Positions 1,974 to 24,120 of a stretch of DNA of 26,274 nucleotides are shown here, piece after piece; positions within the stretch are counted from its first letter, which is position 1, and every line of letters starts with the position of its first letter. The DNA comes from a virus. Location: UHGV virus genome UHGV-0174150. One strand, 5' to 3'. The notes below the pieces were generated by a model. It was not told where the DNA came from. It searched no databases and worked only from the letters and a program-made list of their open reading frames with translations. The translations under genes were made by a program, and so were the position numbers.

Positions 1974-3008
1974 TCAAGCATCGCCTAATTTATATTCGTC
2001 AAAACGAATAATTTCGTCATTAAGCCATTCATTTAATTCCATTAATCTTTTTTGAAGTGGAATCAATTCATTACGAACGAATACTCGACTAGCTTTTTCC
2101 ACGTCTCCAAACCCACCAACGTTGCTCGGCATAATTCCCATCATCTGCGGTGGCACGCGGTGCGCTGCCATCATGTCATCGCGGCTAACGTTCTTGATGT
2201 TAAGAAACTCGTCTTTCGCCGCAACCTCTGATAACGGGATGATCTGGATGCCGTCCTTTTTGCCGTTGGGCGAATACATAAACAGGTTGCGGAAGTTACC
2301 CGGTCCTTTGGCGCTTTTCATTGCCTGACGGATATTGTTCACATCCTCCTGGTTCTGTGCTGCGTCGGTCATGTACATAATGAAACCTGCGTGGCTGCCG
2401 TTGATGTAATACTTCCGGCGAAACAGCGTTGCGGACTCGTTGAGCAGGGTTGACGGGATGGCGGAGAGATAGCCTGGCAGCCCGTAAATCTCCTGGTTAA
2501 TATCCGGCTCCAGCAGATGAAAGATGCTGCCCTGCGTAAATTCATAGGGCTGCGTGGTCATGCCATACTGCACAAACCAGTAGGTATCCAGGTCTAATCC
2601 ACGTCGGGTGTATTTTGCCAGGGCAGGCTCAAGGGCGATAACTTCACCGAATCGGTTCGTGCGTTTCTCCAGGTAGGCGTTACCAAATACCAGATAGTCC
2701 TGCACAAAACGCGAAAAAGCCTGCTGGCTGAGCAGCGGATGAGGGATATAGGTACTGGTCAGAATGTTGCACTTTACTGCAATCGGGGAACTGTGATGCA
2801 CGGCGGCGCGGAAGGTGCGCGCCAGTCCGTCAAAGCTGACGGGCGGCTCATACCAACGGTCCATCTGTACGCATTCCACATAGTCCAGCAGTTCACGGCG
2901 GTCCAGAACAGGAACGGGATCGCCGAAGCTGAATGCTTCGGCTGTAGTTTGACTTTTAAGCTGGATCTGTTTCGTCGCCGCAGCTCGGTTCTTCTTACTC
3001 TTTCCCAT
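1974..3008 (-). CDS. Q: portal protein (P2 Q-like)
   Basis: 344-aa ORF whose position and length match P2 gpQ. Start ATG overlaps the P stop (ATGA coupling); the ORF track extends 1 codon further to a TTG. Confidence 0.9.
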   Translation of the reverse strand: MGKSKKNRAAATKQIQLKSQTTAEAFSFGDPVPVLDRRELLDYVECVQMDRWYEPPVSFDGLARTFRAAVHHSSPIAVKCNILTSTYIPHPLLSQQAFSRFVQDYLVFGNAYLEKRTNRFGEVIALEPALAKYTRRGLDLDTYWFVQYGMTTQPYEFTQGSIFHLLEPDINQEIYGLPGYLSAIPSTLLNESATLFRRKYYINGSHAGFIMYMTDAAQNQEDVNNIRQAMKSAKGPGNFRNLFMYSPNGKKDGIQIIPLSEVAAKDEFLNIKNVSRDDMMAAHRVPPQMMGIMPSNVGGFGDVEKASRVFVRNELIPLQKRLMELNEWLNDEIIRFDEYKLGDA

Positions 3009-4774
3009 CAAAAAATCTCCACAATATTGCTGGTATTGGCGGATTCGCCCTGCAGCGGTTCGTTAAACAGTGCGTGCATCGTTGCCCATGCCAGATCGGC
3101 GTGGCTGGCTTCTTCGCTGCGGCTGGCTTCATAGGTCGGGCGGTTGCCACTGGCGGTGGTGGTGCGACGGATTGCCATAAATGACTGCGCAATGTCGGTA
3201 TGTCCGGCGTCAAACTCCAGACGGCGGTGGCTGATAATGTCGTAGGCCTTGAGTACCAGGGCGTTTTTAACGTTGGGGTTGTAGACAAACTCCCGGACGG
3301 CAGGAAAGAACGCTTTCACGTTCTCGTAAACCCCGTGACCAACGCCGGTTGAGTCGATGCCGATGTAGGTCACGTTGTACTGCTCGGTCAGTTTTTTGAT
3401 TGCGTCAGCCTGGGCGCGGAAGTCCATCCCGCGCCACTGGTGACGCTCAAGAATGCGAAACTTACCGCCCGGCACGGCTGGCGGTGCCACCACCACGCAT
3501 CCGGCGCTGTCGCCGTTCTGCGTACCTTTTGCCGGGTCATAACCGATCCACACTTCGCGCCAGCCAAACGGGCGCAGGGCCAGAGCATGAAAGTCGGTCC
3601 AGACTTCCCAGCTGTCCACCATGCACGCCTGCAGCTCGCTGAGCGGGAACACGGACGCGAGATCGTCCACGAACTCGCACATCAGCAGGTTCTGGTATTC
3701 GTCCGGGCTGTACTCCATGCGCAACTGGTCAAGGTCGAACAGGTTACAGCCGCCGCGCACCGCATCTTCCACGGTGACTATCTGGCGGTATTGCCCGTCT
3801 GCGCACAGCAGGCCGGGGGCCAGATTGCTATGGGACAGGTCGATGTCCACCTTGTCGGCTTTGTTGCGTCCACGGTTGAACAGTGCACCGGACCAGAACG
3901 GATAAGCACTGTGGGTCAGGCTGGATGGCGTGGAAAAATAGGTTTGTCGCCATTTTTTGTGAATAGCCATACCGGAAGCCACTTTGCGCAGCTCCTGGAA
4001 TTTCGGTATCCAGAAATATTCATCCAGATACAGGTTGCCGTGGTAACTCTGGGTCGTGCCGCCAATGGTCTCGAGGAAGTATAGAGTGGCCCCCTAGGGA
4101 AGCTACATCGGTGCGCCTTTCAGCTCCACCTCCACTTCTTTGGCGAAGTCGATGATGTACTGTTTAAAGACGTGGGCCTGTGCCTTACTGGCGGAAAGGA
4201 AAATCTGGTTACGTCCGGTAAGCAGGGCGTCAATCAGGGCTTCACGGGCAAAGTAAAAGGTCGCGCCGATCTGGCGTGACTTCAGCAGGTTGCGGATGCG
4301 GTTGGCTTTTCCGGCTTCCCTCCAGTGGCGCTGGTAGTTGAACATGGAGGAATGGAAGATTTCTTCCAGCTTCTCAATCTGCTCATCGGTGAAAACATTC
4401 TTTTCCGGCTGACGGCGCGGGCCTTTGTTGCGGTTGGCGACGTTAGGGTTTAAGTCGGCTTCGTTGCCGCCATTGTTAAACTTGCTGATCCGCGCGTGGC
4501 GCTCCGACTGGCGCGCCAGCAGGTCAATCTCTTTGAAATCTTTCCCTTCTTTGTGCTCCTTCATAATGAGCTGGCAGTAGCGTGCGGCGGTGGTGAGCTG
4601 CATCTGATCCAGCGGCCCATAGTCACCCCACTTGTCGCGTTTTTTCCAGCTGTGAACGGTTGCAACTTTCTCGCCCAGCATTTCAGCAATGCGGGCTACG
4701 CGGTATCCCTGAAAGTACAGCAGCATGGCCTGCCGACGGGGATCGAGATCTGCGGGTGTCAGTGTGGTGTTCAT
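3008..4774 (-). pseudogene. P: terminase large subunit (P2 P-like), single frame interrupted by two in-frame TAG codons at 4103-4105 and 4094-4096
   Basis: ORFs 4103-4774 (N-terminal part) and 3008-3982 (C-terminal part) are in the same frame. Reading through gives ...KGAPM*LP*GATLYFLETIGG... with no other stop; total 589 codons, about P2 gpP size. Neighbouring residues align to P2 P as recalled from memory. Confidence 0.85.
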
Positions 4775-4916: not shown

Positions 4917-5750
4917 ATGACAGTGAAAGCAAAGCGTTTTCGCATCGGGGTGGAAGGTGCCACCACCGACGGACGCGAAATCCAGCGTGAATGGCTGGAA
5001 CAGATGGCAGCCAGCTACAACCCGGCGGTGTATACCGCGCTGATTAACCTTGAGCACATCAAGTCTTATCTACCGGACAGCACCTTTAACCGCTACGGCA
5101 AGGTGACGGCGCTGTTTGCTGAAGAAATCACGGAAGGTCCGCTGGCAGGCAAGATGGCGCTGTATGCCGACGTTGAGCCAACGGAGTCCCTGGTGGAACT
5201 GGTGAAAAAAGGCCAGAAATTATTCACCTCTATGGAAGTCAGCCCGAAGTTCGCTGATACGGGCAAAGCCTACCTGGTCGGCCTGGCTGCCACTGATGAC
5301 CCTGCCAGTCTGGGTACGGAAATGCTGACATTCAGCGCCAGTGCAGCCCATAACCCGCTGGCAAACCGCAAGCAGAATCCTGCCAATCTCTTTACCGCTG
5401 CAGAGGAAACGGTGATCGAACTGGAAGAAATCCAGGACGACAAACCGTCCCTGTTTGCCCGCGTCACGGCGCTGTTTACCAAAAAAGAGCAGTCCGATGA
5501 CGCCCGGTTCTCTGATGTGCATAAGGCCGTGGAGCTGGTCGCCACTGAGCAGCAGAACCTGAACGCACGCACCGAAAAATCCCTGTCTGAGCAGGAAGAA
5601 CGCCTGTCTGAGCTGGAGACTGCCCTGCAGGCACAGCAAACCGCCTTTAACGAACTGGTGGACAAGCTGAGTCATGAAGACAGCCGCCAGGACTACCGCC
5701 AGCGTGCAACAGGCGGTAACGCCCCCGCTGACACTCTGACCAATTGCTGA
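4917..5750 (+). CDS. O: capsid scaffolding protein (P2 O-like)
   Basis: 277 aa; synteny; similar to P2 gpO, including motifs FRIGVEG and YLVGLAATDDPASLGTE (from memory). Confidence 0.9.
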   Translation: MTVKAKRFRIGVEGATTDGREIQREWLEQMAASYNPAVYTALINLEHIKSYLPDSTFNRYGKVTALFAEEITEGPLAGKMALYADVEPTESLVELVKKGQKLFTSMEVSPKFADTGKAYLVGLAATDDPASLGTEMLTFSASAAHNPLANRKQNPANLFTAAEETVIELEEIQDDKPSLFARVTALFTKKEQSDDARFSDVHKAVELVATEQQNLNARTEKSLSEQEERLSELETALQAQQTAFNELVDKLSHEDSRQDYRQRATGGNAPADTLTNC

Positions 5751-5766
5751 TGGAGCACAAAACCCG

Positions 5767-6825
5767 ATGAAAAAGAATACCCGCTTTGCTTTTAACGCTT
5801 ACCTGCAGCAACTGGCGCGTCTGAACGGTGTGGCAGTTGAAGAACTGTCCAGCAAATTCACTGTGGAGCCGTCTGTGCAGCAGACGCTGGAAGACCAGAT
5901 CCAGCAGTCCGCCGCTTTCCTGACGCTGATTAACGTCACGCCAGTGACTGAGCAGTCCGGTCAGCTGCTGGGGCTGGGTGTTGGCAGCACCATTGCCGGA
6001 ACCACTGATACCACCGCGAAAGAGCGTGAACCTGTCGATCCGACGCTGATGGTCGATGTGGAATATAAATGCGAGCAGACCAACTTTGACACGGTGCTGA
6101 CCTACGCGAAGCTGGACCTGTGGGCGAAGTTTCAGGATTTCCAGGGGCGGATCCGTGACGCCATCGTGAAACGTCAGGCACTGGACCGCATCATGATCGG
6201 CTTATACGGCCGGACGCTTTCGAAAACCTCCAACCGTAGTGAAAACCCGCTGCTGCAGGATGTGAACAAAGGCTGGCTGCAGAAAATCCGTGAGGATGCA
6301 CCGGATCACGTCATGGGCAGCACCACCACGGGCGGCGAAACCACACCGGGTGCGGTGAAAGTCGGGAAAGGTGGCGAATATGCCAACCTGGACGCTGTGG
6401 TGATGGATGCGGTCAATGAGCTTATCGACGTGGTCTACCAGGACGATGACGATCTGGTGGTGATTTGCGGGCGTGAACTGCTGTCTGACAAGTATTTCCC
6501 GCTGGTCAACAAAGAGCAGGAAAACAGTGAAAAACTGGCTGCCGATATGATCATCAGTCAGAAACGCATGGGTGGCCTGCAGGCGGTGCGTGCGCCGTTC
6601 TTCCCGCCGAATGCGCTGCTGATCACCCGTCTGGATAACCTGTCCATCTACTGGCAGGAAGATACCCGCCGCCGTTCAGTTATCGACAACCCGAAACGTG
6701 ACCGGATTGAAAATTTTGAATCCGTTAACGAAGCCTATGTGGTTGAGGACTATCGCTGCGCTGCACTGGTGGAAAACATCCAGATTGGTGATTTCAGCGC
6801 CGCCGCAGCCGAAACCGGAGCGTAA
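5767..6825 (+). CDS. N: major capsid protein (P2 N-like)
   Basis: 352 aa, immediately after O; size and position match P2 gpN. Confidence 0.9.
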   Translation: MKKNTRFAFNAYLQQLARLNGVAVEELSSKFTVEPSVQQTLEDQIQQSAAFLTLINVTPVTEQSGQLLGLGVGSTIAGTTDTTAKEREPVDPTLMVDVEYKCEQTNFDTVLTYAKLDLWAKFQDFQGRIRDAIVKRQALDRIMIGLYGRTLSKTSNRSENPLLQDVNKGWLQKIREDAPDHVMGSTTTGGETTPGAVKVGKGGEYANLDAVVMDAVNELIDVVYQDDDDLVVICGRELLSDKYFPLVNKEQENSEKLAADMIISQKRMGGLQAVRAPFFPPNALLITRLDNLSIYWQEDTRRRSVIDNPKRDRIENFESVNEAYVVEDYRCAALVENIQIGDFSAAAAETGA

Positions 6826-12622: not shown

Positions 12623-13220
12623 TCTGCTGCCACCGGGTTCAACTTCACTGGAGCGCCGACTGGCGCAAACCTGCAGCGGGATTTCTGATCTGCAGGTGCC
12701 GCTTCGTGACTTGTGGAATCCGGCAACCTGTCCGGTCAGTTTCCTGCCTTATCTCGCCTGGGCGTTCTCTGTGGATCGCTGGGACGAGGGCTGGACAGAA
12801 AGCGTCAAACGCCAGGTAGTGAAGGATGCTTTTTATATTCATCAGCACAAAGGAACCACCAGTGCCGTACGGCGGGTGGTGGAGCCGTTCGGCTTCCTGA
12901 TCCGCATTATTGAGTGGTGGCAGACCGGAGAAACACCGGGCACGTTTCGCCTGGATATCGGCGTGCAGGACCAGGGCATCACTGAAGATACCTATCTGGA
13001 ACTTGAGCGGCTGATAAGCGATGCCAAACCATGTAGCCGTCACATGATCGGCATGTCCATCAATCTGCAGACCAGCGGTCCGCATTGGGTGGGGGCCGCC
13101 AGCTATCTTGGCGAAGAAATCACGATCTATCCGTATATCAACGAAACAATTATTTCCGGCGGCACCGCGCATGAAGGCGGGGCGGTCCATGTTATTGACA
13201 CAATGAGAGTGAATCCATGA
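12615..13220 (+). CDS. I: baseplate protein (P2 I-like)
   Basis: 201 aa; synteny between J and H. Confidence 0.8.
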   Translation: MNSLLPPGSTSLERRLAQTCSGISDLQVPLRDLWNPATCPVSFLPYLAWAFSVDRWDEGWTESVKRQVVKDAFYIHQHKGTTSAVRRVVEPFGFLIRIIEWWQTGETPGTFRLDIGVQDQGITEDTYLELERLISDAKPCSRHMIGMSINLQTSGPHWVGAASYLGEEITIYPYINETIISGGTAHEGGAVHVIDTMRVNP

Positions 13221-15580
13221 GCACAAAATTTTATACCCTGCTGACGGATATTGGCGCGGCGAAACTTGCCAGCGCCGCCGCGATCGGTGTGCCGCTAAAA
13301 ATTACCCATATGGCGGTGGGCGATGGCGGCGGAGCATTGCCGACGCCGGACGCAAAGCAGACGGCACTGGTAAATGAGAAACGCCGGGCTGCGCTGAATA
13401 TGCTCTATATCGACCCGCAGAACAGCAGCCAGATTATTGCTGAACAGGTGATCCCTGAAAATGAGGGTGGTTGGTGGATACGTGAAGTGGGTCTGTTTGA
13501 TGAGTCCGGGGCATTGATTGCCGTGGGCAACTGCCCGGAAAGCTATAAGCCGCAACTGGCTGAAGGCAGCGGGCGTACCCAGACCGTGCGCATGGTGCTG
13601 ATTACCAGCAGCACGGACAATATCACCCTGAAAATCGACCCTGCTGTAGTGCTGGCAACCCGCAAGTATGTGGATGACAAGGCACTGGAGCTGAAGGTGT
13701 ACGTGGATGACCTGATGGCAAAACATCTTGCCGCGCCGGACCCGCATTCACAGTATGCACCCAAAGAAAGTCCAACGTTTACCGGAACCCCCAAAGCGCC
13801 AACGCCAGCGGCGGGGAATAATACCACGCAGCTTGCGACCACCGCGTTTGTACAGGCGGCACTGACGGCCCTTATTAATGGTGCGCCAGCCACGCTGGAC
13901 ACGCTGAAAGAAATAGCCGCAGCCATTAACAATGATCCGAATTTCAGTACCACCATTAACAATGTGCTGGCACTAAAAGCACCGTTGTCGAGTCCGGCAC
14001 TCACCGGAACGCCAACAGCCCCCACGGCGGCACAGTCGGTCAACAATACACAGATTGCCACTACGGCTTTTGTGAAATCGGCGATTGCGGCAATGGTGGG
14101 TTCTGCACCTGCGGCACTGGATACACTGAACGAACTGGCGGCGGCGCTGGGGAATGACCCGAACTTTGCCACGACAATGCTTAATGCACTGGCAGGTAAA
14201 CAACCGCTGGACAATACGCTGACTAATTTGAGTGGAAAGGATGTAGCTGGTCTTCTCGCATACCTTGGTATTTCAGCGCCAGGCGGCGCAGGGTCAGTTG
14301 GATATAAATTAAATGCAGAGAATACAGTCTCACGAACTGCATACGATAATTTTTCTGACCGAATTAATGCCGGAGACTTTGGTATTAAGGGTGATGGGAT
14401 AGCTGATAATGCTGCTGCGATAACCAAGGCATGTGCTGCATTGCAGAAACTGTACGAAATTGATGGAATCCGTCGCACATTGGTATTTACAGATGGGTCA
14501 TATCGCACATCGGCCACAATTGTTGTTCATGCAAATATGCTTATTCATTGCGAGGGGGGGGTTGTATTCCAGAATATCGGGGCAGTAAAAACCTTTGCAG
14601 CGGTGGAGCTTCAGGGCGGATCCAAGAAAAGCGTACTCGGCACTATGGACGGGTACGGTAGCGCCATCCTCATCAGGGGTAGCACTCATACTGTCGAATT
14701 TCAGACAATCAGTAACTGCGTAGATGGGGTGATTTTCAGGGCTGACAACAACTGGGCATCCACGAAAAGCAGCCTGGATAATGTGGTTCGTGGTGTTCAA
14801 ATTGGCAAATGTACTAACGCTATCGTGTTTGAGCAGAACGCTAATAATCTTGTGCAACAGGGCAATGAAGTTCGTGTCAACTTTGTGTCTGAAACCCCTA
14901 ACACACTGCTTTTCAGAAACTTCGATGGATTTGTCCACACAGAGGAATCTAACTGGGATAGTAACTTCGTAGAGCTGATAGCGAGTGACCCAATAACGCT
15001 GCCAGATTCATCTATGGCTAGGAACTCTACCCCCCATAGCGTATCAAACCTGACAATGGCGGTTAAATCATGGTGCGGAGGTTGGGTGCCCGATGCAGGC
15101 TCCATGTGCCTGATTAGAGGTGCGTTCAGTACCAGTACGTTCGAGTTCAATCTGGCCCAACGAGTAGGCTTAAACGAGGTTGTGGATGCCGTCGGCGTTA
15201 ATTCATTTGGTTCGTGTATTTTACGAAATACTCGTTATGAGAATTTAGGTAATTCAATATCTTATATCGGCGTTACTACTGGCGCTGAGTTCAATAGTGG
15301 TTTAGCCCTTTTCCGTAGTAAGTTCCGAGTCAGATTTACCGTGGTACCTCTGGCCGCAGGCCAAACGTACGGACTGTCTTTTAAGCATGTGCTGAGCCAG
15401 CGCTCAAATACAGGCAGGATGCGGATCGTACAATACTCGGATACAGCCAGGGGCAAGCTCTTGATTGAGGTTCGTGATGCGGGTACTGAGACGCAGGGCC
15501 TGGTGCGGGTGTGGTTCACAAATTTAACTCAGACAACTACGTCCACAATGGACGTAGAAATTATTTTTGAAGCTGAATAA
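13217..15580 (+). CDS. H: tail fibre / tailspike, mosaic: P2 H-like N-terminal half joined to an AT-rich C-terminal module with a pectate-lyase-superfamily-like motif
   Basis: N-terminal roughly 335 aa match P2 gpH including the NSPALTGTP...NDPNFATTM...AGKQP repeat region. After about nt 14220 composition turns AT-rich and the protein carries DFGIKGDGIADNAAAI, like the start of beta-helix depolymerase tailspikes. Confidence 0.85.
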   Translation: MSTKFYTLLTDIGAAKLASAAAIGVPLKITHMAVGDGGGALPTPDAKQTALVNEKRRAALNMLYIDPQNSSQIIAEQVIPENEGGWWIREVGLFDESGALIAVGNCPESYKPQLAEGSGRTQTVRMVLITSSTDNITLKIDPAVVLATRKYVDDKALELKVYVDDLMAKHLAAPDPHSQYAPKESPTFTGTPKAPTPAAGNNTTQLATTAFVQAALTALINGAPATLDTLKEIAAAINNDPNFSTTINNVLALKAPLSSPALTGTPTAPTAAQSVNNTQIATTAFVKSAIAAMVGSAPAALDTLNELAAALGNDPNFATTMLNALAGKQPLDNTLTNLSGKDVAGLLAYLGISAPGGAGSVGYKLNAENTVSRTAYDNFSDRINAGDFGIKGDGIADNAAAITKACAALQKLYEIDGIRRTLVFTDGSYRTSATIVVHANMLIHCEGGVVFQNIGAVKTFAAVELQGGSKKSVLGTMDGYGSAILIRGSTHTVEFQTISNCVDGVIFRADNNWASTKSSLDNVVRGVQIGKCTNAIVFEQNANNLVQQGNEVRVNFVSETPNTLLFRNFDGFVHTEESNWDSNFVELIASDPITLPDSSMARNSTPHSVSNLTMAVKSWCGGWVPDAGSMCLIRGAFSTSTFEFNLAQRVGLNEVVDAVGVNSFGSCILRNTRYENLGNSISYIGVTTGAEFNSGLALFRSKFRVRFTVVPLAAGQTYGLSFKHVLSQRSNTGRMRIVQYSDTARGKLLIEVRDAGTETQGLVRVWFTNLTQTTTSTMDVEIIFEAE
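13769..14215 (+). repeat. two tandem ~74-codon tail-fibre repeat units inside H
   Basis: SPTFTGTPKAPT...NDPNFSTTINNVLALKAPL directly followed by SPALTGTPTAPT...NDPNFATTMLNALAGKQPL; unit boundaries approximate. Confidence 0.55.
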
Positions 15581-15589
15581 GGGTCACCA

Positions 15590-15817
15590 ATGACACTGGA
15601 AGAATTAAAAGCCGACAAAGCTGAAACACTGGCAAAAGCGAATGCATTGACATCATACATTCAGTCAGATGATTTTCATCTGGCTGGGCATAGCCCAGCT
15701 GAGCAGCATTACATGAAAAAGCGGGAGGCGGCATTGCTGGAATATCATATGCAACTGACCCACCAAATCGCAGTGATTGAAAACCCATCCGGCGTGCCAC
15801 TCACTCTCACTGAATAA
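15590..15817 (+). CDS. hypothetical small protein (75 aa) at the position of the P2 tail-fibre assembly gene G; possibly a chaperone remnant
   Basis: Starts 9 nt after the H stop; AT-rich; much shorter than P2 G (about 175 aa); only vague resemblance to Tfa C-termini. Confidence 0.4.
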   Translation: MTLEELKADKAETLAKANALTSYIQSDDFHLAGHSPAEQHYMKKREAALLEYHMQLTHQIAVIENPSGVPLTLTE

Positions 15818-15863
15818 TGTGCGAACATTCGACCATTAATGGAACCTAACGGAGAAGTTTAAC

Positions 15864-16163
15864 GTGGATATATCCCCATTTCTTCATACTTGTGCCGCTG
15901 TACTTATCCAAGCGTTTTTTGGTTACTTTTTTGGTAGGTGGGGGTATGGCGGCATTATTGGCTGCGTGTGGTTTATTGCTCGTGAACAAACGCAGGCTGA
16001 ATATCGATGGATAGCCGAGTTCGGCCACGGAAAGCGGATCAACATGCCGTGGTGGGGAGGTTTCGATATCAGGGTGTGGAATGTTGGAAGCATGCTTGAT
16101 TTCCTGGTGCCGGTAATAGTCTGTTCCCTGGTGTATGCCTGCGTGGTGTATCGGCAGGCATAG
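15864..16163 (+). CDS. hypothetical Trp/Gly-rich small membrane protein (99 aa)
   Basis: GTG start with GGAGAAG 6 nt upstream; hydrophobic N- and C-terminal segments. A 126-codon antisense ORF (15846-16226) overlaps it fully and I judge that one less likely. Confidence 0.4.
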   Translation: MDISPFLHTCAAVLIQAFFGYFFGRWGYGGIIGCVWFIAREQTQAEYRWIAEFGHGKRINMPWWGGFDIRVWNVGSMLDFLVPVIVCSLVYACVVYRQA

Positions 16164-16247
16164 CGTCATGATAATCACCAATCGAACGTTTAAGAAAATG
16201 AAGAGATAACGGCTAACTGGCATCATTTCCGGTTTCTATTCAGGGGG

Positions 16248-16820
16248 ATGATCATGCTTATTGGATATGTACGCGTGTCAACAAATGACCAGAACACCGA
16301 TTTGCAACGCAATGCGCTGAACTGCGCGGGATGTGAGCGGATTTTTGAGGATAAAATCAGTGGCACTAAGTCCGACAGACCGGGGCTGAAAAAACTGCTC
16401 AGGACACTATCGGCAGGAGACACGCTGGTTGTCTGGAAGCTGGACAGGTTGGGGCGCAGTATGCGGCATCTTGTTACGCTGATAGAGGAGTTGCGCCAGC
16501 GTGGTGTGAATTTCCGAAGCCTGACTGACAGTATTGATACCAGTACCCCAATGGGCCGTTTCTTTTTTCATGTCATGGGTGCCCTGGCTGAAATGGAACG
16601 CGAACTGATAGTTGAACGTACCAGGGCAGGGCTGGCTGCAGCTCGTGCCAAAGGCAGAGTAGGTGGACGCCGTCCTAAGTTGACCACCGAACAGTGGGCA
16701 CAGATTGGGCGTTTACTCGAGGCCGGAGAATCAAGACAGCGTATTGCACTGATTTTTGATGTGGGTGTTTCCACAATTTATAGAAAATTTCCGGCAAATA
16801 AGAGTAATGAATCCCCCTGA
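16248..16820 (+). CDS. serine recombinase, Hin/Gin/Pin/Cin-family DNA invertase
   Basis: N-terminal LIGYVRVSTNDQ..DLQ catalytic motif, VVWKLDRLGRS, MGRFFFHVMGALAEMERELIVERT, and C-terminal HTH (GVSTIYRKF). Probable true start is the ATG at 16254 (MLIGY). Confidence 0.9.
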   Translation: MIMLIGYVRVSTNDQNTDLQRNALNCAGCERIFEDKISGTKSDRPGLKKLLRTLSAGDTLVVWKLDRLGRSMRHLVTLIEELRQRGVNFRSLTDSIDTSTPMGRFFFHVMGALAEMERELIVERTRAGLAAARAKGRVGGRRPKLTTEQWAQIGRLLEAGESRQRIALIFDVGVSTIYRKFPANKSNESP

Positions 16821-16868
16821 ATCAGCATTATTTTGATTATCCCTGCAAGCAGACAAATACCGTCATTT

Positions 16869-16886
16869 TGTGTGAATAACGGTACA
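16869..16886. promoter_or_regulatory. TGT-N12-ACA dyad upstream of FI; putative Ogr-dependent late promoter element
   Basis: TGTgtgaataacggtACA read directly, very similar to the P/O-region site (TGTGTG...CGGTACA). Centre about 85 bp upstream of the FI ATG, followed by a CAGGAGG Shine-Dalgarno. Confidence 0.45.
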
Positions 16887-16962
16887 ACTGCGCTTAGCTG
16901 TTTGTCAGGCACAATCACTTCAACATAGGGCGAAGCCTAATCCAATCAGGAGGTTCGCCACT

Positions 16963-18135
16963 ATGGCTCAGGATTACCACCACGGGGTGCGCGTTGTTGA
17001 AGTCAACGAAGGCACCCGATCCATTACCACGGTGAGCACCGCCATCGTGGGCATGGTCTGCACGGGCGATGATGCCGATGCAAAAATGTTTCCTCTTAAC
17101 AAACCTGTGCTGATCACTGATGTGCTGACTGCCAGCGGTAAAGCGGGTGAGTCCGGCACGCTGGCCCGTTCGCTGGATGCCATCGCTGACCAGGCAAAAC
17201 CCGTGACCGTTGTTGTGCGTGTGCCGCAGGGTGAAACGGAAGAAGAAACCACGACCAATATCATCGGCGCAGTGACTGCTGAAGGTAAAAAAACAGGCAT
17301 GAAAGCTCTGTTATCTGCCCAGTCACAGCTCGGCGTTAAACCGCGCATTCTCGGCGTGCCAGGTCACGATAACAAAGCCGTTGCGACTGAGTTGCTGAGC
17401 GTGGCGCAAAGCCTGCGTGGGTTTGCTTACCTGTCAGCGTATGGCTGCAAGACGGTACAGGAGGCGATCACTTACCGTGAAAACTTCAGCCAGCGCGAAG
17501 GAATGCTGATCTGGCCCGACTTTACTGGCTGGGACACGGTGCTGAATGCCGAAGCAACGGCATATGCCACCGCCCGTGCACTTGGTCTGCGTGCCAAAAT
17601 TGATGAGCAGACCGGGTGGCACAAAAGCCTGTCCAACGTGGGCGTGAACGGTGTCACCGGAATTTCTGCAGATGTGTTCTGGGATCTGCAGGACCCGGCA
17701 ACCGATGCAGGTCTGCTGAACCAGAACGACGTCACCACGCTTGTGCGTAAAGACGGTTTCCGCTTCTGGGGTTCCCGCTGTCTGAGCGATGATCCGCTTT
17801 TTGCCTTCGAAAACTACACCCGCACGGCGCAGGTGCTGACGGACACAATGGCAGAAGCACACATGTGGGCGGTGGATAAACCGCTTAACCCGTCGCTGGC
17901 CCGCGACATTATCGAAGGTATCCGCGCCAAAATACGCAGCCTGGTCAGTCAGGGCTATCTCATTGGTGGTGATTGCTGGCTGGATGAGTCGGTGAACGAC
18001 AAAGACACGCTGAAAGCCGGAAAACTCACCATCGACTATGACTACACGCCAGTGCCGCCACTTGAAAATCTGATGCTGCGCCAGCGCATCACCGATCAGT
18101 ACCTGGTGAATTTTGCCAGCCAGGTCAGCGCGTAA
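16963..18135 (+). CDS. FI: contractile tail sheath protein (P2 FI-like)
   Basis: 390 aa; strong similarity to P2 gpFI along its length (DYHHGV...EGTR...[10 protein letters not shown]...[12 protein letters not shown]), from memory. Confidence 0.92.
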
Positions 18136-19017: not shown

Positions 19018-19151
19018 CGGTTGACGATCTGGTGGCAGATATCGCCACCATTTTTCACTGGCCGCCATCCGTTACTGACGTTATGCCGCTGACCGAAGTG
19101 CTGGAATGGCGGTATAAAGCGATTCAGAGAAGCGGGGCCAACGATGAGTGA
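18715..19151 (+). CDS. E+E': E+E' fusion produced by programmed -1 frameshift at TTTTTTG (18972-18978)
   Basis: The -1 frame after the slippery site is open to TGA at 19149-19151, encoding ...VDDLVADIATIFHWPPS...SGANDE and overlapping the T start. Same arrangement as P2 E/E' and lambda G/GT. Confidence 0.6.
18972..18978 (+). other. slippery heptanucleotide T_TTT_TTG, -1 ribosomal frameshift site for E+E'
   Basis: Read directly in the E frame as ACT TTT TTG. Confidence 0.6.
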
Positions 19152-22100
19152 TAACAACCTGCGTCTGCAGGTCATTCTTAATGCGGTTGACAAGCTCACC
19201 CGCCCATTTCGATCTGCGCAGGCCAGTTCAAGAGAACTGGCTGCTGCTGTCAAAAAATCCCGCGATGCAATAAAGCAGCTTGATCAGGCCGGGAGCAGTC
19301 TGGACAGCTTCCGAAAGCTGCAGGCAGAAAATCAGAAATTAGGCGACAGGCTGAACTATGCCCGCCAGCGTGCAAATTTGCTCAGTCAGGAACTGGGAGC
19401 GATGGGGCCGCCTTCGCAACGTCAGGTTGTTGCTCTGGGCCGTCAACGGCTGGCTGTTCAGCGCCTGGAAGAACGCCAGAAAAAGCTGCAGCAGCAGACG
19501 GCGCTTGTGCGTGCTGAACTGTACCGGGCGGGAATTTCTGCGAAAGACGATGCGGGAGCAACTGCCCGTTTAGCCCGTGAAACATCACGTTATAACCAGG
19601 AACTTTCGAAACAGGAGGCGCGGCTGAAGCGACTGGGGGAAGCTCAGCGCAGGATGAATGCAGCGCGTGTCAGTTATGCCCGTTCGCTGGAGGTGCGTGA
19701 TCGTATTGCAGGTGCCGGAGCCACCACCACGGCTGCAGGGCTGGCAATGGGCGCACCAGTGATGGCGGCAGTAAAAAGCTATACCAGCATGGAAGATGCC
19801 ATGAAAGGTGTGGCAAAGCAGGTCAATGGTCTGCGTGACGATAATGGCAACCGCACTGCACGTTTTTATGAAATGCAGGATGCCATCAAGGCTGCCAGCG
19901 AACAGTTGCCGATGGAAAACGGTGCGGTGGATTTCGCTGCACTGGTTGAAGGTGGTGCGCGCATGAACGTCGCAAACCCTGACGACAGTTGGGAAGATCA
20001 GAAACGTGACCTGCTGGCCTTCGCCAGTACGGCAGCAAAGGCGGCAACAGCCTTTGAGCTGCCAGCGGATGAACTGTCAGAAAGTCTGGGGAAAATCGCC
20101 CAGCTCTACAAAATCCCCACCCGCAATATTGAACAGCTCGGTGATGCGCTGAACTATCTGGATGATAACGCCATGTCGAAAGGGGCAGACATCATTGATG
20201 TGATGCAACGTCTGGGCGGTGTGGCTGACCGTCTGGATTATCGTAAAGCGGCGGCGCTGGGTTCCACCTTCCTGACACTGGGCGCTGCGCCAGAGGTTGC
20301 AGCCAGTGCAGCAAACGCGATGGTGCGTGAATTGTCCATTGCCACCATGCAAAGCAAAAGTTTCTTTGAAGGGATGAATCTGCTGAAACTCAATCCTGAA
20401 GTGATTGAAAAGCAGATGACGAAGGATGCGATGGGAACCATCCAGCGCGTGCTGGAGAAGGTAAACGCGCTGCCGCAGGACAAGCGCCTGTCTGCCATGA
20501 CTATGTTGTTTGGTAAAGAGTTTGGCGATGACGCGGCGAAACTGGCAAACAACCTGCCGGAACTGCAGCGTCAGTTAAAACTGACAGCGGGCAATGATGC
20601 GCTCGGCTCCATGCAGAAAGAATCCGACATTAACAAGGATTCACTTTCTGCGCAGTGGTTGCTGGTCAAAACCGGAGCGCAGAACACCTTCAGCAGCCTG
20701 GGCGAAACGCTGCGCCAGCCGCTGATGGATATTCTGTACACGGTGAAAAGCGTCACGGGGGCGTTGCGTCGCTGGGTGGAAGCTAACCCGGAACTGACAG
20801 GCACACTGATGAAAGCATCGGCTGTTGTGGCTGCGGTTACCGTCGGCCTCGGCACCTTAGCGGTGGCGCTGGCTGCAGTGCTGGGGCCGCTGGCAGTGAT
20901 CCGTCTGGGATTCTCTGTGTTGGGTATCAAAACGTTATCTTCCGTTACGGCAGCAGTAACTCGAACCAGCAGCGCGTTGTCCTGGCTGGCTGGCGCGCCA
21001 CTGGCACTGCTGCGACGCGGGCTTGCTTCATCGGGCAACGCCGCAGGTTTACTTACTGCGCCGTTGTCGTCATAGCGCCGCACGGCATCACTCACGGGAA
21101 ATGTCCTGAAAACTCTAGCAGGAGCGCCGGTTGCACTTTTGCGGTCTGGATTATCCGGTTTACGTGCTGTTGCTGTGATGTTTATGAATCCTCTGGCGAT
21201 GCTGCGCGTTGCCCTGTATGCCATATCTGGTCTGTTAGGTGCTCTGCTCAGTCCGATAGGTCTTGTGGTTACTGCACTGGCGGGCGTGGCGCTGGTTGTC
21301 TGGAAATACTGGCAACCCATCACCGCATTTCTCGGTGGCGTGGTGGAAGGATTCAAAGCGGCGGCAGGTCCCATCAGTGCAGCGTTCGAACCGCTTAAGC
21401 CCGTGTTCCAGTGGATTGGCGACAAAGTGCAGGCGCTGTGGGGCTGGTTTACTGATCTGCTGACGCCCGTTAAGTCGACCTCTGCCGAACTGCAGAGCGC
21501 AGCGGCCATGGGGCGACGATTCGGGGAGGCACTGGCAGAAGGGCTGAATATGGTCATGCATCCGCTGGACTCCCTGAAATCCGGCGTTTCCTGGTTGCTG
21601 GAGAAACTCGGCATTGTCAGTAAAGAGGCTGCAAAGGCGAAACTGCCGGAAAGCGTGACGCGTCAGCAACCTGCGACGGTGAATGCAGACGGTAAAGTGA
21701 TGATGCCATCGGGTGGTTTTCCGTCATGGGGATATGGCTTTGCGGGGATGTATGACAGCGGCGGCTATATCCCGCGCGGGCAGTTCGGCATTGTCGGTGA
21801 AAACGGGCCGGAAATTGTCAACGGTCCGGCAAACGTGACCAGCCGGAGAAATACCGCTGCACTGGCTGCGGTTGTCGCCGGAATGATGGGAGTTGCTGCC
21901 GCGCCAGCAGAGCTTCCACCGTTGCATCCTTTGGCGCTTCCCGCGAAAGGCGGTGAAGCGATGGTGAGTCGCGTAGCTGCTGTGCCGCCCGTTCACCGGA
22001 TTGAGGCACCGACGCAGATCATCATCCAGACGCAGCCAGGACAAAGTGCGCAGGATATTGCGCGGGAGGTGGCACGCCAGCTTGATGAACGTGAACGCAG

Positions 22101-22155
22101 GCTGAAGGCAAAAGCCAGGAGTAACTACAGCGATCAGGGGGGATACGACGCATGA
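19144..22155 (+). pseudogene. T: tail tape-measure protein (P2 T-like), single frame interrupted by one in-frame TAG at 21073-21075
   Basis: ORFs 19144-21075 and 21139-22155 are in the same frame; the 63 nt between them are open, so the only interruption is the TAG. Read-through gives ...LLTAPLSS*RRTASLTGNVLKTLAGAPVALL..., continuous Ala/Leu-rich tape-measure sequence. Confidence 0.85.
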
Positions 22156-23824: not shown

Positions 23825-24043
23825 ATGATGATTTGCCCACTGTGTGGAAGTGCCGCCCATACTCGCAGCAGTTTTCAGGTATCTTCATTGACCAAAGAGC
23901 GTTACAACCAGTGCCAGAACATTAACTGCAGCCATACTTTTGTTACCCATGAAACTTTTGTTCGTTCGATTGCAACGCCAAAAGAGTCAAATCCGGTTCA
24001 GCCGCATCCAATGAAATCAGGACAGGTGGCGCTCTCTCTTTGA
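23825..24043 (+). CDS. ogr: Ogr-type zinc-finger late transcription activator
   Basis: 72 aa from ATG 23825 (GGGGAGA Shine-Dalgarno upstream); CPLCG...C..C zinc-finger and KERYNQCQNINCSHTF closely parallel P2 Ogr. Confidence 0.85.
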   Translation: MMICPLCGSAAHTRSSFQVSSLTKERYNQCQNINCSHTFVTHETFVRSIATPKESNPVQPHPMKSGQVALSL

Positions 24044-24120
24044 CGCTGCCGCCAATTTGTCGCCATCGTTAAAAAACAGCGCTTCTAACATCATGATTTT
24101 AAAAGGCATAAATTTCAGGC

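Follow-up and report, generated by a model that had tools for sequence, protein, structure and literature searches.

The window analysed here, a 26,274-nt stretch of viral DNA that represents a P2-like (Cartapus-like) Escherichia coli prophage adjoining ybjL, encodes a chimeric tail-fibre protein H: its first 349 residues belong to the phage backbone, and the remainder lies on a three-gene cassette that is found nearly unchanged in unrelated phages and whose two ends fall exactly on the central dinucleotides of crossover sites for a DNA invertase. We propose that this cassette was swapped in by the invertase and furnishes the fibre with a polysaccharide-specific tailspike, an explanation that, taken as a whole, we consider likely.

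Anatomy of the Chimeric Tail-Fibre Protein

The constant part of H (13217..14264, plus strand; aa 1-349) comprises a P2-type collar domain (PF12571 on aa 1-150, E 2.3e-64) and two fibre repeats of ~80 aa (aa 181-345) that are 62% identical to one another. Residues 1-350 share 98% amino acid identity with H of phage Cartapus, and at the nucleotide level Cartapus matches the window at 96.8% identity up to 14269; over residues 181-340, H matches the phage P1 fibre at 81% identity. These relationships bear out the initial annotation, which had taken H to be P2-type through its repeats. At the fusion point (…GLLAYL|GISAPGG…), GC content drops from 55.4% (13217-14264) to 47.0% (14265-15580) and GC3 from 58.5% to 45.7% across the same border, so that the uniform composition named in advance as contrary evidence is not seen. 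The abrupt shift described in that annotation is hence real, but since it is modest, the term "AT-rich" overstates it; further, the break lies at 14265 rather than at 14220, and the low-GC tract continues past H to 16186.

The remaining 437 residues of H (aa 350/351-787; 14264..15580, plus strand) form a tailspike module with a linker and helical cap, a right-handed beta-helix and a C-terminal beta-sandwich. The strand-rich character of this part, which contains DFGIKGDGIADNAAAITKA, had been pointed out at the outset, and its AF2 (monomer) model is indeed a right-handed parallel beta-helix; no alignment to P2-type fibre tips, the outcome that would have spoken for an ordinary fibre end, was obtained. 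Its top Foldseek matches are the O-antigen endoglycosidase tailspikes of Sf6, HK620 and Det7 along with capsule depolymerases, with sequence identities to any solved structure of 8-15%. A PF12708 match on aa 383-523 (19.4 bits, E 0.001) falls under the gathering threshold of 27 bits, and a precomputed match to the same family is present in many homologues. Similarity to other tailspikes starts just after residue 350, at the junction, the usual starting point of such modules. The family is small (42 homologue clusters found; a tblastn search of the module against 50,697 phage records returned only weak similarity, in the first ~120 aa), and its members are joined to at least five N-terminal virion anchors, namely the P2 collar (PF12571), TSP1/gp66 N (PF18668), the P22 head-binding domain (PF09008), the T7 fibre N-terminal domain (PF03906) and PF27114. 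This diversity of anchors, together with the presence of identical DNA in unrelated phages (see below), indicates that the module is mobile, in line with the earlier proposal of a horizontally acquired module.

The module probably binds, and might well cleave, a surface polysaccharide of E. coli, either O antigen or capsule. Conservation of five acidic residues (E539, E551, D581, E586 and D591) is complete or at least 90% in 37 sequences reaching down to 34% identity, and several of these carboxylates would sit on successive rungs of the predicted beta-helix. Further, a Pseudomonas homologue adjoins a gene of the Acyl_transf_3 family, which we take to include O-antigen acetylases. Some beta-helix proteins bind only, a fact that counts against the depolymerase reading, and the domain might accordingly be a non-catalytic receptor-binding domain (an adhesin); we consider this unlikely, given the enzymatic nature of the best structural matches, the near-invariance of the carboxylates and the acyltransferase gene beside the Pseudomonas tailspike.

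Small Genes Accompanying the Tailspike

The gene following H (15590..15817, plus strand) encodes a 75-aa helical-hairpin protein (AF2 pLDDT 88.7; helices 3-24, 27-31 and 36-64) that travels with the tailspike family: its 71-aa homologues, 42-43% identical (E 7e-18 and 2e-17), are located directly 3' of tailspikes that are 61-68% identical to that of the window, in an HP1-like phage and in a large myovirus. An exhaustive HMMER search recovered 2 clusters among 1.84 billion representatives; a word-indexed search found only the protein itself, and a BFVD fold search, in which no E-value lay below 0.08, yielded only generic helical hairpins. The initial annotation had noted that this gene of 75 codons is not a P2 G-like chaperone, and in agreement with this no tail-fibre-assembly family matched in Pfam, PHROGs or NCBIfam. 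Its lack of a Tfa family, its shortness relative to the ~130-200 aa of P2 G/Tfa chaperones and its helical hairpin led us to reject such an identity; a Pfam match to crAss001_48 (E 0.044) was likewise set aside as below threshold. The 75-aa partner is absent beside two homologous tailspikes, and therefore the gene is not essential for the fold. It may instead assist the tailspike in its assembly or use, as a candidate assembly or accessory factor.

The third gene (15864..16163, plus strand) encodes a 99-aa putative membrane protein (phrog_1443, E 1.9e-41) with hydrophobic segments at ~aa 5-24 and 74-97. It is ~64% identical to a "putative membrane protein" whose gene comes after that of the side tail fibre in phage 21 and in lambda-like phages, and represents an independently mobile cargo gene. 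The side tail fibre of phage 21 and its 92-aa neighbour were also compared with H and the 75-aa ORF, and are unrelated to them. Neither the 75-aa nor the 99-aa protein matched PADLOC defence models, and a promoter/terminator scan of 15400-17000 yielded counts at chance level.

A Near-Identical Cassette in Unrelated Phage Contexts

The tailspike module and the two small genes together constitute a cassette of 1,922 bp (14265..16186, plus strand) that extends from a central TT to a central AA and recurs nearly unchanged in at least seven phage contexts, both P2-like and Mu-like, all reached solely via exact-protein look-ups. In a full-length comparison of six copies, there are 0-5 mismatches over the 1,922 bp; the 400-bp flanks of these six contexts show 50-75% identity in all pairs, the sole exception being the right flanks of L004 and L010 (95.5%). 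An identity profile of the window against L004 rises from 42-76% to ~100% at 14265 and drops again at ~16190, and the Mu-like locus L002 is 99.9% identical to the window across the cassette and has nothing else in common with it. In each of the six contexts compared over their full length, the left junction coincides with the crossover TT and the right one with the AA; in the seventh, L024, which was compared at the right junction only, the same junction is followed by yet another outer half-site. The cassette has a GC content of 47.2%, compared with 53.9% in the remainder of the window, and GC stays under the backbone level until about 16900, i.e., past the cassette end. Assembly chimeras were ruled out as the source of the junctions, since three of the contexts (L002, L008 and L009/L014) come from NCBI isolate assemblies and assemblers cannot join contigs on an overlap of 2-5 bp.

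The cassette is rare. When 5,426 complete E. coli genomes were queried with it by megablast, only its junction ends (70-80 bp) were hit. An exact search for its right end had no match in IMG/VR, GTDB genomes or JGI metagenomes, and a pattern-based scan that applied the tailspike alignment to GTDB genomes was likewise without a match. Among the assemblies that do contain it are GCA_034324245.1, GCA_030391515.1 and GCA_028615015.1, and relatives of it occur at 57-68% identity.

The Invertase and Its Crossover Sites

An apparently intact Gin-type serine DNA invertase gene (16254..16820, plus strand; the ORF prediction starts at 16248) begins 67 bp past the cassette end, ~0.7 kb downstream of the H module. 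Its product combines a Resolvase domain (E 2.3e-53) with HTH_7 (E 1.5e-15), belongs to phrog_125 (DNA invertase), and matches PDB 3uj3, "DNA-invertase", over residues 1-184 (E 7.9e-93); the serine in its N-terminal sequence, MLIGYVRVSTNDQ, is at what we presume to be the catalytic position in Gin. Neither this gene nor the crossover sites bounding the module had been mentioned in the initial annotation.

Invertases of this kind act on 26-bp sites with a central dinucleotide, for which a consensus is available, and are active in trans (PMC4134206). The left site of the window (14253..14278, plus strand) reads TTCTCGCATACC TT GGTATTTCAGCG: its outer half (14253-14264) is backbone, the central TT occupies 14265-14266, and its degenerate inner half (14267-14278) belongs to the cassette. 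Cartapus has TTCTCGCATACC TT GGTTTGGGAGAA at this position, and the identity of L002 to the window begins at 14265. The right site (16173..16198, minus strand) reads AATCACCAATCG AA CGTTTAAGAAAA on the top strand, with a degenerate inner half from the cassette (16173-16184), the central AA at 16185-16186 and an outer half from the backbone (16187-16198); the Cartapus counterpart is TTCTCCCAAACC AA CGTTTATGAAAA. Here, L002 identity stops at ~16187-16191 and Cartapus identity begins at 16178-16185. Relative to each other, the two sites are inverted; their central dinucleotides match and their outer half-sites are good. The motif TTYTCNNAWACSTT, a pattern picked post hoc, occurs only at the left site and, on the minus strand, at the right site, the match being confined to the outer half and the dinucleotide. 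The inner half-sites fit the consensus poorly and have 2 of their 12 positions in common, and a search for inverted repeats found none connecting the two sites.

The flanks of Cartapus are 97-99% identical to those of the window, and between the same two sites this phage has a classical invertible segment. In Cartapus, 500465-1 and Klebsiella KP12, the genes located between these sites are those for a tail fibre, an alternative fibre tip, two Tfa proteins and the invertase.

A Proposed Route of Acquisition

Briefly, we advance the following mechanism. An ancestor of the prophage would have carried, like its close relatives, a classical invertible segment with two alternative fibre tips and two chaperones, which the cassette would have replaced through strand exchange by the serine invertase at the central dinucleotides. 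H now reads into the cassette from the central TT, the cassette ends at the central AA of the inverted second site, and each site is a hybrid of a good outer half-site and a poor inner half-site borne by the cassette. The same route may have moved the cassette repeatedly between P2-like and Mu-like phages. The resulting six trimeric fibres, each an H::tailspike fusion on a contractile tail, would bind and probably cleave a surface polysaccharide, and the outcome would be one fixed host specificity in place of a switchable one. Such a tailspike might dispense with a Tfa/G-type chaperone, and the 75-aa protein may contribute to its assembly or use. Exchange by the invertase is a conjecture in this scheme, because wild-type Gin and Hin enzymes strongly prefer intramolecular inversion; the weakness of the inner half-sites also speaks against it.

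The cassette might alternatively have spread by homologous or illegitimate (microhomology) recombination, with the position of the junctions at crossover sites being incidental. Microhomology could be provided by the outer half-sites, which are short and conserved, and phage mosaicism stems in large part from relaxed homologous recombination (PMC3945230). However, the flanks are mostly 50-60% identical, the level of unrelated sequences, and yet the same dinucleotides are hit in six of six contexts. At the left junction, L002 has AAATA to the left of the TT, where the other contexts have ATACC or AAACC, which leaves only ~2-5 nt of common sequence. Moreover, the very source that documents relaxed recombination treats tail-fibre exchange apart, as probably invertase-driven (PMC3945230). 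We therefore hold this alternative to be improbable and retain exchange by the invertase as the preferred route.

The Cassette Appears Fixed in One Orientation

Since no inverted copy was found, the cassette looks fixed in one orientation: the order H, 75-aa gene, 99-aa gene, invertase holds in 9 of 9 distinct places (24 contigs read out of 89 index blocks). When the hypothetical inverted C-terminus was searched against 5.8 billion protein clusters, the only match was one 125-aa ORF in native orientation, without an H fusion. On inversion, H would enter a minus-strand frame that runs antisense to the 99-aa gene and stays open over 112 codons; the product of this frame has no family in Pfam or PHROGs and no homologue besides its own copies. 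A true alternative fibre tip was thus ruled out, the plus-strand ORF at this place being phrog_1443, with no H fusion.

There is only a slim chance, in our estimate, that the cassette is still an invertible ON/OFF switch, whose inversion would leave H with the 112 antisense codons and the fibre without a receptor-binding domain. The intact invertase, the inverted sites with their matching dinucleotides and good outer half-sites, and the open minus-strand frame would all be compatible with it; so would the repeated spread of the cassette, which implies that the hybrid sites are used at least rarely, and the known use of imperfect secondary crossover sites by Cin (PMC4270481, PMC4134206). Against it stand the single gene order, the lack of inverted H fusions, an antisense peptide that belongs to no family and lies opposite a phrog_1443 gene, inner half-sites alike at only 2/12 positions with no longer inverted repeat, and L008, in which the invertase is cut to 80 aa and the cassette is unaltered. 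A cassette locked in its present orientation hence remains our preferred reading.

Comparison with Known Systems

The locus resembles the Gin/Cin/Pin/Min systems (the Mu G, P1 C and e14 P segments; PMC4134206) in having a Gin-family invertase directly downstream and two inverted sites of the 26-bp type, of which the left lies within the fibre gene, where its constant part meets the variable one. It differs from them in that: (i) a fibre end is encoded in one reading direction only, the opposite strand carrying neither an alternative tip nor a chaperone; (ii) the inner half-sites are degenerate, there is no extended inverted repeat and no inverted copies were found; (iii) the cargo is a beta-helix tailspike with two unrelated small genes.

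With the beta-helix tailspikes (P22, Sf6, HK620, Det7, the CBA120 TSPs and Klebsiella Depo32), the module shares, as modelled, the beta-helix and C-terminal beta-sandwich, as well as a swappable N-terminal anchor and the lack of a Tfa-type chaperone. It stands apart from them in its low identity to solved structures, in its small family and in its anchor, a 349-aa fibre shaft of the P2 H/P1 S type on a contractile tail. That such an arrangement can work is suggested by the R-type pyocin fusions AvR2-V10 and AvR2-O104, in which tailspikes attached to an N-terminal fibre segment from a P2-like R-pyocin gave functional O-antigen-specific particles (PMC3303846); those fusions were engineered and retain 164 aa of fibre, whereas the one in the window is natural and retains 349 aa, including the repeats. 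In its genomic position, the cassette coincides with the P2 Z/fun hotspot between the fibre genes and FI, described as a place of receptor-binding protein swapping with frequent DNA invertases (bioRxiv 10.1101/2024.10.15.618418); the available portion of that survey does not tie the borders of the swapped units to crossover dinucleotides.

Implications for the Evolution of Host Range

That tail fibres are mosaic across unrelated phages was recognised in 1992-94, and the classical examples are old, diverged mosaics. As relayed in later accounts (PMC3945230, PMC4134206), Sandmeier (1994) held that host-range determinants pass between unrelated phages through the action of DNA invertases, and the segments then considered, like the present one, are receptor-specificity segments bounded by invertase sites and common to Mu-, P1- and P2-type phages. 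Unlike those examples, the segment of the window is near-identical (0-5 differences in 1,922 bp, six contexts) and is not a fibre tip, and it is this near-identity that allows the junctions to be placed with single-base precision on both sides. Thus, a proposal of invertase causation that previously drew on old, diverged junctions can now be set against ones legible in several phage contexts, and the cassette provides a clear-cut natural example for the idea of 1994, which becomes directly testable with defined substrates.

A broader view is that Gin-family invertases and their sites act as a horizontal cassette-exchange system, an "integron for receptor-binding modules", that has operated recently and is still active; we put this forward tentatively, with somewhat less than even confidence. 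The invertases beside the cassette belong to one family and are only 50% identical between P2-like and Mu-like hosts. Another Gin-family invertase locus with a single-orientation cassette and hybrid sites is present in E. coli BE311 (L022). If the view is correct, any DNA gaining TT/AA quasi-sites could be captured between outer half-sites and shuttled among co-resident P2-like and Mu-like prophages; such capture would extend to a tailspike together with its helper gene, as well as to an unrelated gene for a membrane protein, and would work across invertases as divergent as these. In-frame stops in the terminase and tape-measure genes (gpP and gpT) suggest that the prophage of the window itself may no longer make particles; gpT is full-length in other copies.

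Finally, recognition of the acquired unit as a three-gene cassette between crossover sites indicates its probable route of acquisition. The locus draws attention to a small tailspike family with a conserved 75-aa companion and a putative surface glycan of E. coli as its target, and it offers a natural design for placing a polysaccharide-specific tailspike on a P2-type contractile tail, which may be of use in retargeting tailocins and phages.

The prophage and its composite tail-fibre gene

The window takes in the late region of a P2-like prophage, whose gene order between the portal gene and gpD follows that of Escherichia phage Cartapus (Peduoviridae, Elveevirus), with 92-99% identity. The 2.2 kb past the prophage are 99.7% identical to the ybjL-ybjM region of E. 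coli, which identifies the host; since similarity to Cartapus stops at ~23955 and the sequence at 24100 is already that of the E. coli ybjL region, attR (the prophage/host junction) lies within 23955-24100. Relative to Cartapus, the terminase large-subunit gene (3008-4774, minus strand) has two in-frame stops within four codons at ~4080-4100 (…GAPM*LP*GATLYF… against …GDPMVLPNGATLYF…), and the tape-measure gene (19144-22155, plus strand) is interrupted by an in-frame TAG at 21073-21075, a TTG codon in Cartapus. The alignment is gap-free there, so these stops are substitutions; this copy of the prophage may be defective, or the sequence may be in error at the stops, the tape-measure gene being full-length in other copies of the same phage. 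Before the portal gene, a low-GC block (~42%, 1-2000), at the position of a DUF4145 gene in Cartapus, encodes a 256-aa HTH protein (308-1078) and a 282-aa protein without family (1088-1936), and PADLOC returned only weak RmrA-like HTH matches for it (E ~1e-3). This position is a known P2 cargo or defence hotspot.

Gene H (13217-15580, plus strand; 787 aa) follows the P2-type fibre as far as the repeats, as the initial annotation had it: residues 1-150 match the fibre collar (PF12571, E 2.3e-64), and residues 181-345 comprise two ~80-aa repeats with 62% identity between them. Over this stretch H is 81% identical to the phage P1 fibre, and over residues 1-350 it shares 98% identity with Cartapus H. 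The shift in composition claimed to follow is real and abrupt, GC falling from 55.4% (13217-14264) to 47.0% (14265-15580) and GC3 from 58.5% to 45.7% across 14264/14265; however, "AT-rich" overstates it, and the lower-GC tract does not end with H, extending through 16186 at 47.2% GC as against 53.9% in the rest of the window.

A modular tailspike family

The AlphaFold2 model of the C-terminal domain, built with 36 homologues aligned with residues 336-787 (pLDDT 89.5, pTM 0.86), opens with a short helical cap, continues through many short strands in succession and closes with a C-terminal sandwich, bearing out the strand-rich region suspected earlier. PF12708 matches H below threshold (19.4 bits; cut-off 27), and the module is 8-15% identical to any solved structure. 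In the homologue alignment the carboxylates E539, E551, D581, E586 and D591 are invariant or nearly so down to 34% identity, a pattern that fits, but does not prove, a glycosidase or lyase. The family (42 clusters at E ≤ 1e-3 among 5.8 billion) is clearly modular: its N-terminal partners are the P2 collar, the TSP1/gp66 N-domain, the P22 head-binding domain, the T7 fibre N-domain or PF27114, and similarity begins just past H residue 350, the usual start point of such modules. With the same module behind at least five different N-terminal domain types, and its cassette common to differing phages, the view of it as exchangeable and horizontally acquired holds.

In one E. coli isolate (GCA_030391515.1; loci L014 and L016) the cassette lies in a P2-like prophage, and a second prophage has a 57% identical tailspike (P0020, 607 aa) next to lysis genes; the two may share a surface glycan target. 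At 4928-5962 of locus L019 (Pseudomonas aeruginosa, GCA_001451505.1), a 40% identical homologue is followed by an Acyl_transf_3 gene on the opposite strand. Members of this family include the O-antigen acetylases of lysogenic conversion, a hint that the receptor of this homologue may be an O antigen.

Two small genes accompany the module. The first (15590-15817, plus strand) encodes a 75-aa protein that, as initially annotated, belongs to no G-like chaperone family, with no tail-fibre-assembly match in Pfam, PHROGs or NCBIfam. It is predicted to form a helical hairpin (pLDDT 88.7) with no significant fold match in BFVD, and a search of 1.84 billion representatives turned up just one further cluster. 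Directly after the related tailspikes of L005, an HP1-like phage, and L018, a large myovirus, come 71-aa homologues (42-43% identical); hence, the gene travels with the tailspike across three phage kinds. It is absent beside two more distant tailspike homologues. A role in spike assembly or use is plausible for this candidate. The second gene (15864-16163, plus strand) encodes a 99-aa membrane protein (phrog_1443, E 1.9e-41) with a hydrophobic segment close to either end. It is ~64% identical to a product named "putative membrane protein", whose gene comes after the side-tail-fibre genes in phage 21 and in lambda-like phages. The fibre and small neighbour there proved unrelated to H and the 75-aa gene; thus, the 99-aa gene is an independently mobile cargo gene.

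A cassette in the slot of an invertible segment

The initial account of the module was incomplete in lacking an invertase and crossover sites, both of which are present. An intact serine DNA invertase (Resolvase and HTH_7; E 7.9e-93 to PDB 3uj3) lies downstream at 16254-16820 on the plus strand. Cartapus, phage 500465-1 and Klebsiella KP12 match the window only from 13217 to ~14269 and from ~16178 on, at 95-97% identity; between these points they carry a classical invertible segment, comprising a fibre tip, two tail-fibre-assembly genes and an opposite-strand alternative fibre tip. The left site reads TTCTCGCATACC TT GGTTTGGGAGAA in Cartapus and TTCTCGCATACC TT GGTATTTCAGCG in the window (14253-14278), and the right site TTCTCCCAAACC AA CGTTTATGAAAA in Cartapus and AATCACCAATCG AA CGTTTAAGAAAA in the window (16173-16198). 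Judged by sequence, both are 26-bp Gin/Cin/Pin-type crossover sites, each made up of a central dinucleotide flanked by 12-bp half-sites (PMC4134206 gives the consensus and examples from E. coli prophages). The outer half-sites and central dinucleotides are kept between window and Cartapus, and everything between the dinucleotides differs. Across the window the motif TTYTCNNAWACSTT has just two matches, one at each site, in inverted orientation (chance expectation 0.01), a count that is no independent test because the pattern was composed after the sites were seen. A perfect 12-bp inverted repeat (ATTCAGGGGGAT / ATCCCCCTGAAT; 16238-16249 and 16811-16822) brackets the invertase ORF at its ribosome-binding region and stop codon; it may be a coincidence, at a rough chance estimate of ~0.4 per 3.8 kb.

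Movement among differing phages

Wherever exact-protein look-ups located the module elsewhere, it was accompanied by the 75-aa and 99-aa genes and an invertase. Its surroundings vary: the E. coli prophage L002 is Mu-like (homologues of Mu gp37/45/46/48) and is flanked by sequence 100% identical to eptB-yhjX-yhjY; L004, L010 and L008 share a P2-like gene set, combined in L004 and L010 with a CHAP endolysin and with gpU and tape-measure genes that lie inverted past the invertase, and in L008 with a truncated invertase; L015 has another fibre type and adjoins dinI and an integrase gene. Cut from TT to AA, each copy is 1,922 bp, and the six contexts, the window included, differ by 0-5 nucleotides, whereas the 400-bp flanks on each side share 50-75% identity, close to what unrelated sequence scores under this scheme, except for the right flanks of L004 and L010 (95.5%). 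By blastn the whole window shares with L002 a single stretch, 14265-16191 at 99.9% identity, and nothing else; against L004, identity is 42-76% to 14249, ~100% over 14300-16149 and 40-85% beyond 16200. The outer half-sites likewise vary by context (left/right): TTCTCGCATACC/CGTTTAAGAAAA in the window, TTCTACAAAACC/CGTTTTTGAAAA in L004, TTCTCAAAAACC/CGTTTTGGAAAA in L010, TTCTTAAAAACC/CCTTTTAGAAAA in L008, CTCTCGAAAACC/CCTTTCAAATAT in L015 and TCCTAGCAAATA/CCTTTTATGGAT in L002. The invertases beside the cassette in the window and L002 are only 50% identical.

A seventh type of outer half-site, CGTTTTCGATAA, stands at the one junction seen, the right one, in L024 (ENA ERZ28614764 scaffold_43719), a 1,952-bp contig with the cassette's right end; its left ~70 bases are unlike the corresponding part of the window's tailspike gene, so the N-terminal part of its module may have recombined or diverged. 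In L008 (GCA_014462855.1, 5664-5906) the invertase is cut to 80 aa, H (640 aa) is complete and the cassette is identical to that of the window.

Cleavage by serine invertases falls on the central dinucleotide (PMC4134206), and borders lying exactly on both dinucleotides in several differing phages are the trace expected of their strand exchange, by which the cassette was probably acquired. Sandmeier (1994) proposed that invertases exchange host-range determinants, a proposal repeated in PMC3945230, and Arber's group found Cin able to use secondary, imperfect sites (PMC4270481, PMC4134206). The degenerate inner half-sites suggest that first capture would have occurred through quasi-sites at the natural start of the tailspike module; in L005 and L018 the related tailspike and small gene stand together with no invertase nearby. 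The exchange itself might have taken two intermolecular crossovers, or two successive inversions between prophages of one chromosome. The main weakness of this account is that wild-type Gin and Hin disfavour intermolecular reactions. Spread by homologous recombination is unlikely, given that the flanks are mostly unrelated and that in L002 even the bases directly left of TT differ. Assembly chimeras were rejected as the source of the junctions: three of the contexts are isolate assemblies, and the overlap is only 2-5 bp, too short to yield a chimera.

An effectively fixed orientation

Were the cassette inverted, H would continue in frame for 112 codons on the strand opposite the 99-aa gene, where a minus-strand ORF of 126 codons (15846-16226) crosses the right crossover site. 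A search of 5.8 billion protein clusters with the antisense peptide found no inverted H fusion, its sole match being a 125-aa ORF in native orientation in yet another context. The peptide matches no family, the plus-strand ORF there having the strong match to phrog_1443; with no homologues but its own copies, the minus-strand ORF is probably a shadow ORF. In 9/9 distinct places shown (24 contigs read) H is followed by the 75-aa gene, then the 99-aa gene and the invertase, and no inverted repeat was found linking the two crossover sites beyond their outer halves. On these sequences we conclude that the cassette, though it may invert rarely, is effectively fixed.

Another E. coli locus, L022 (BE311, complete genome; NZ_CP097213.1 3061736-3066002), matches the window at 99.3% at both cassette junctions and has a single-orientation cassette before the invertase, with a 557-aa H, a 137-aa hypothetical protein and no alternative tip; the same search found this feature set in four further complete genomes. 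Fixed cassettes beside invertases are therefore not unique to the tailspike.

Implications for host range

Tailspike-module swapping and invertible fibre segments are already known, as is, from bioRxiv 10.1101/2024.10.15.618418, the P2 Z/fun hotspot with invertases; the cassette proteins themselves already have NCBI entries from E. coli, named "phage tail protein" and "hypothetical protein". Two points are new: the combination, in which a tailspike cassette of three genes and a single orientation takes the place of an invertible segment, and the evidence, from base-exact junctions at the crossover dinucleotides, pointing to its recent movement among P2-like and Mu-like phages. Tailspikes placed behind 164 N-terminal residues from the fibre of a P2-like R-pyocin gave functional, O-antigen-specific particles (PMC3303846), a man-made joint of the same kind as that in H. 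In our proposal, the backbone part of H would attach to the P2 baseplate and make the shaft, and the cassette part, a predicted trimeric beta-helix spike, would bind and probably cut E. coli O antigen or capsule, thereby giving the phage one fixed, polysaccharide-defined host range.
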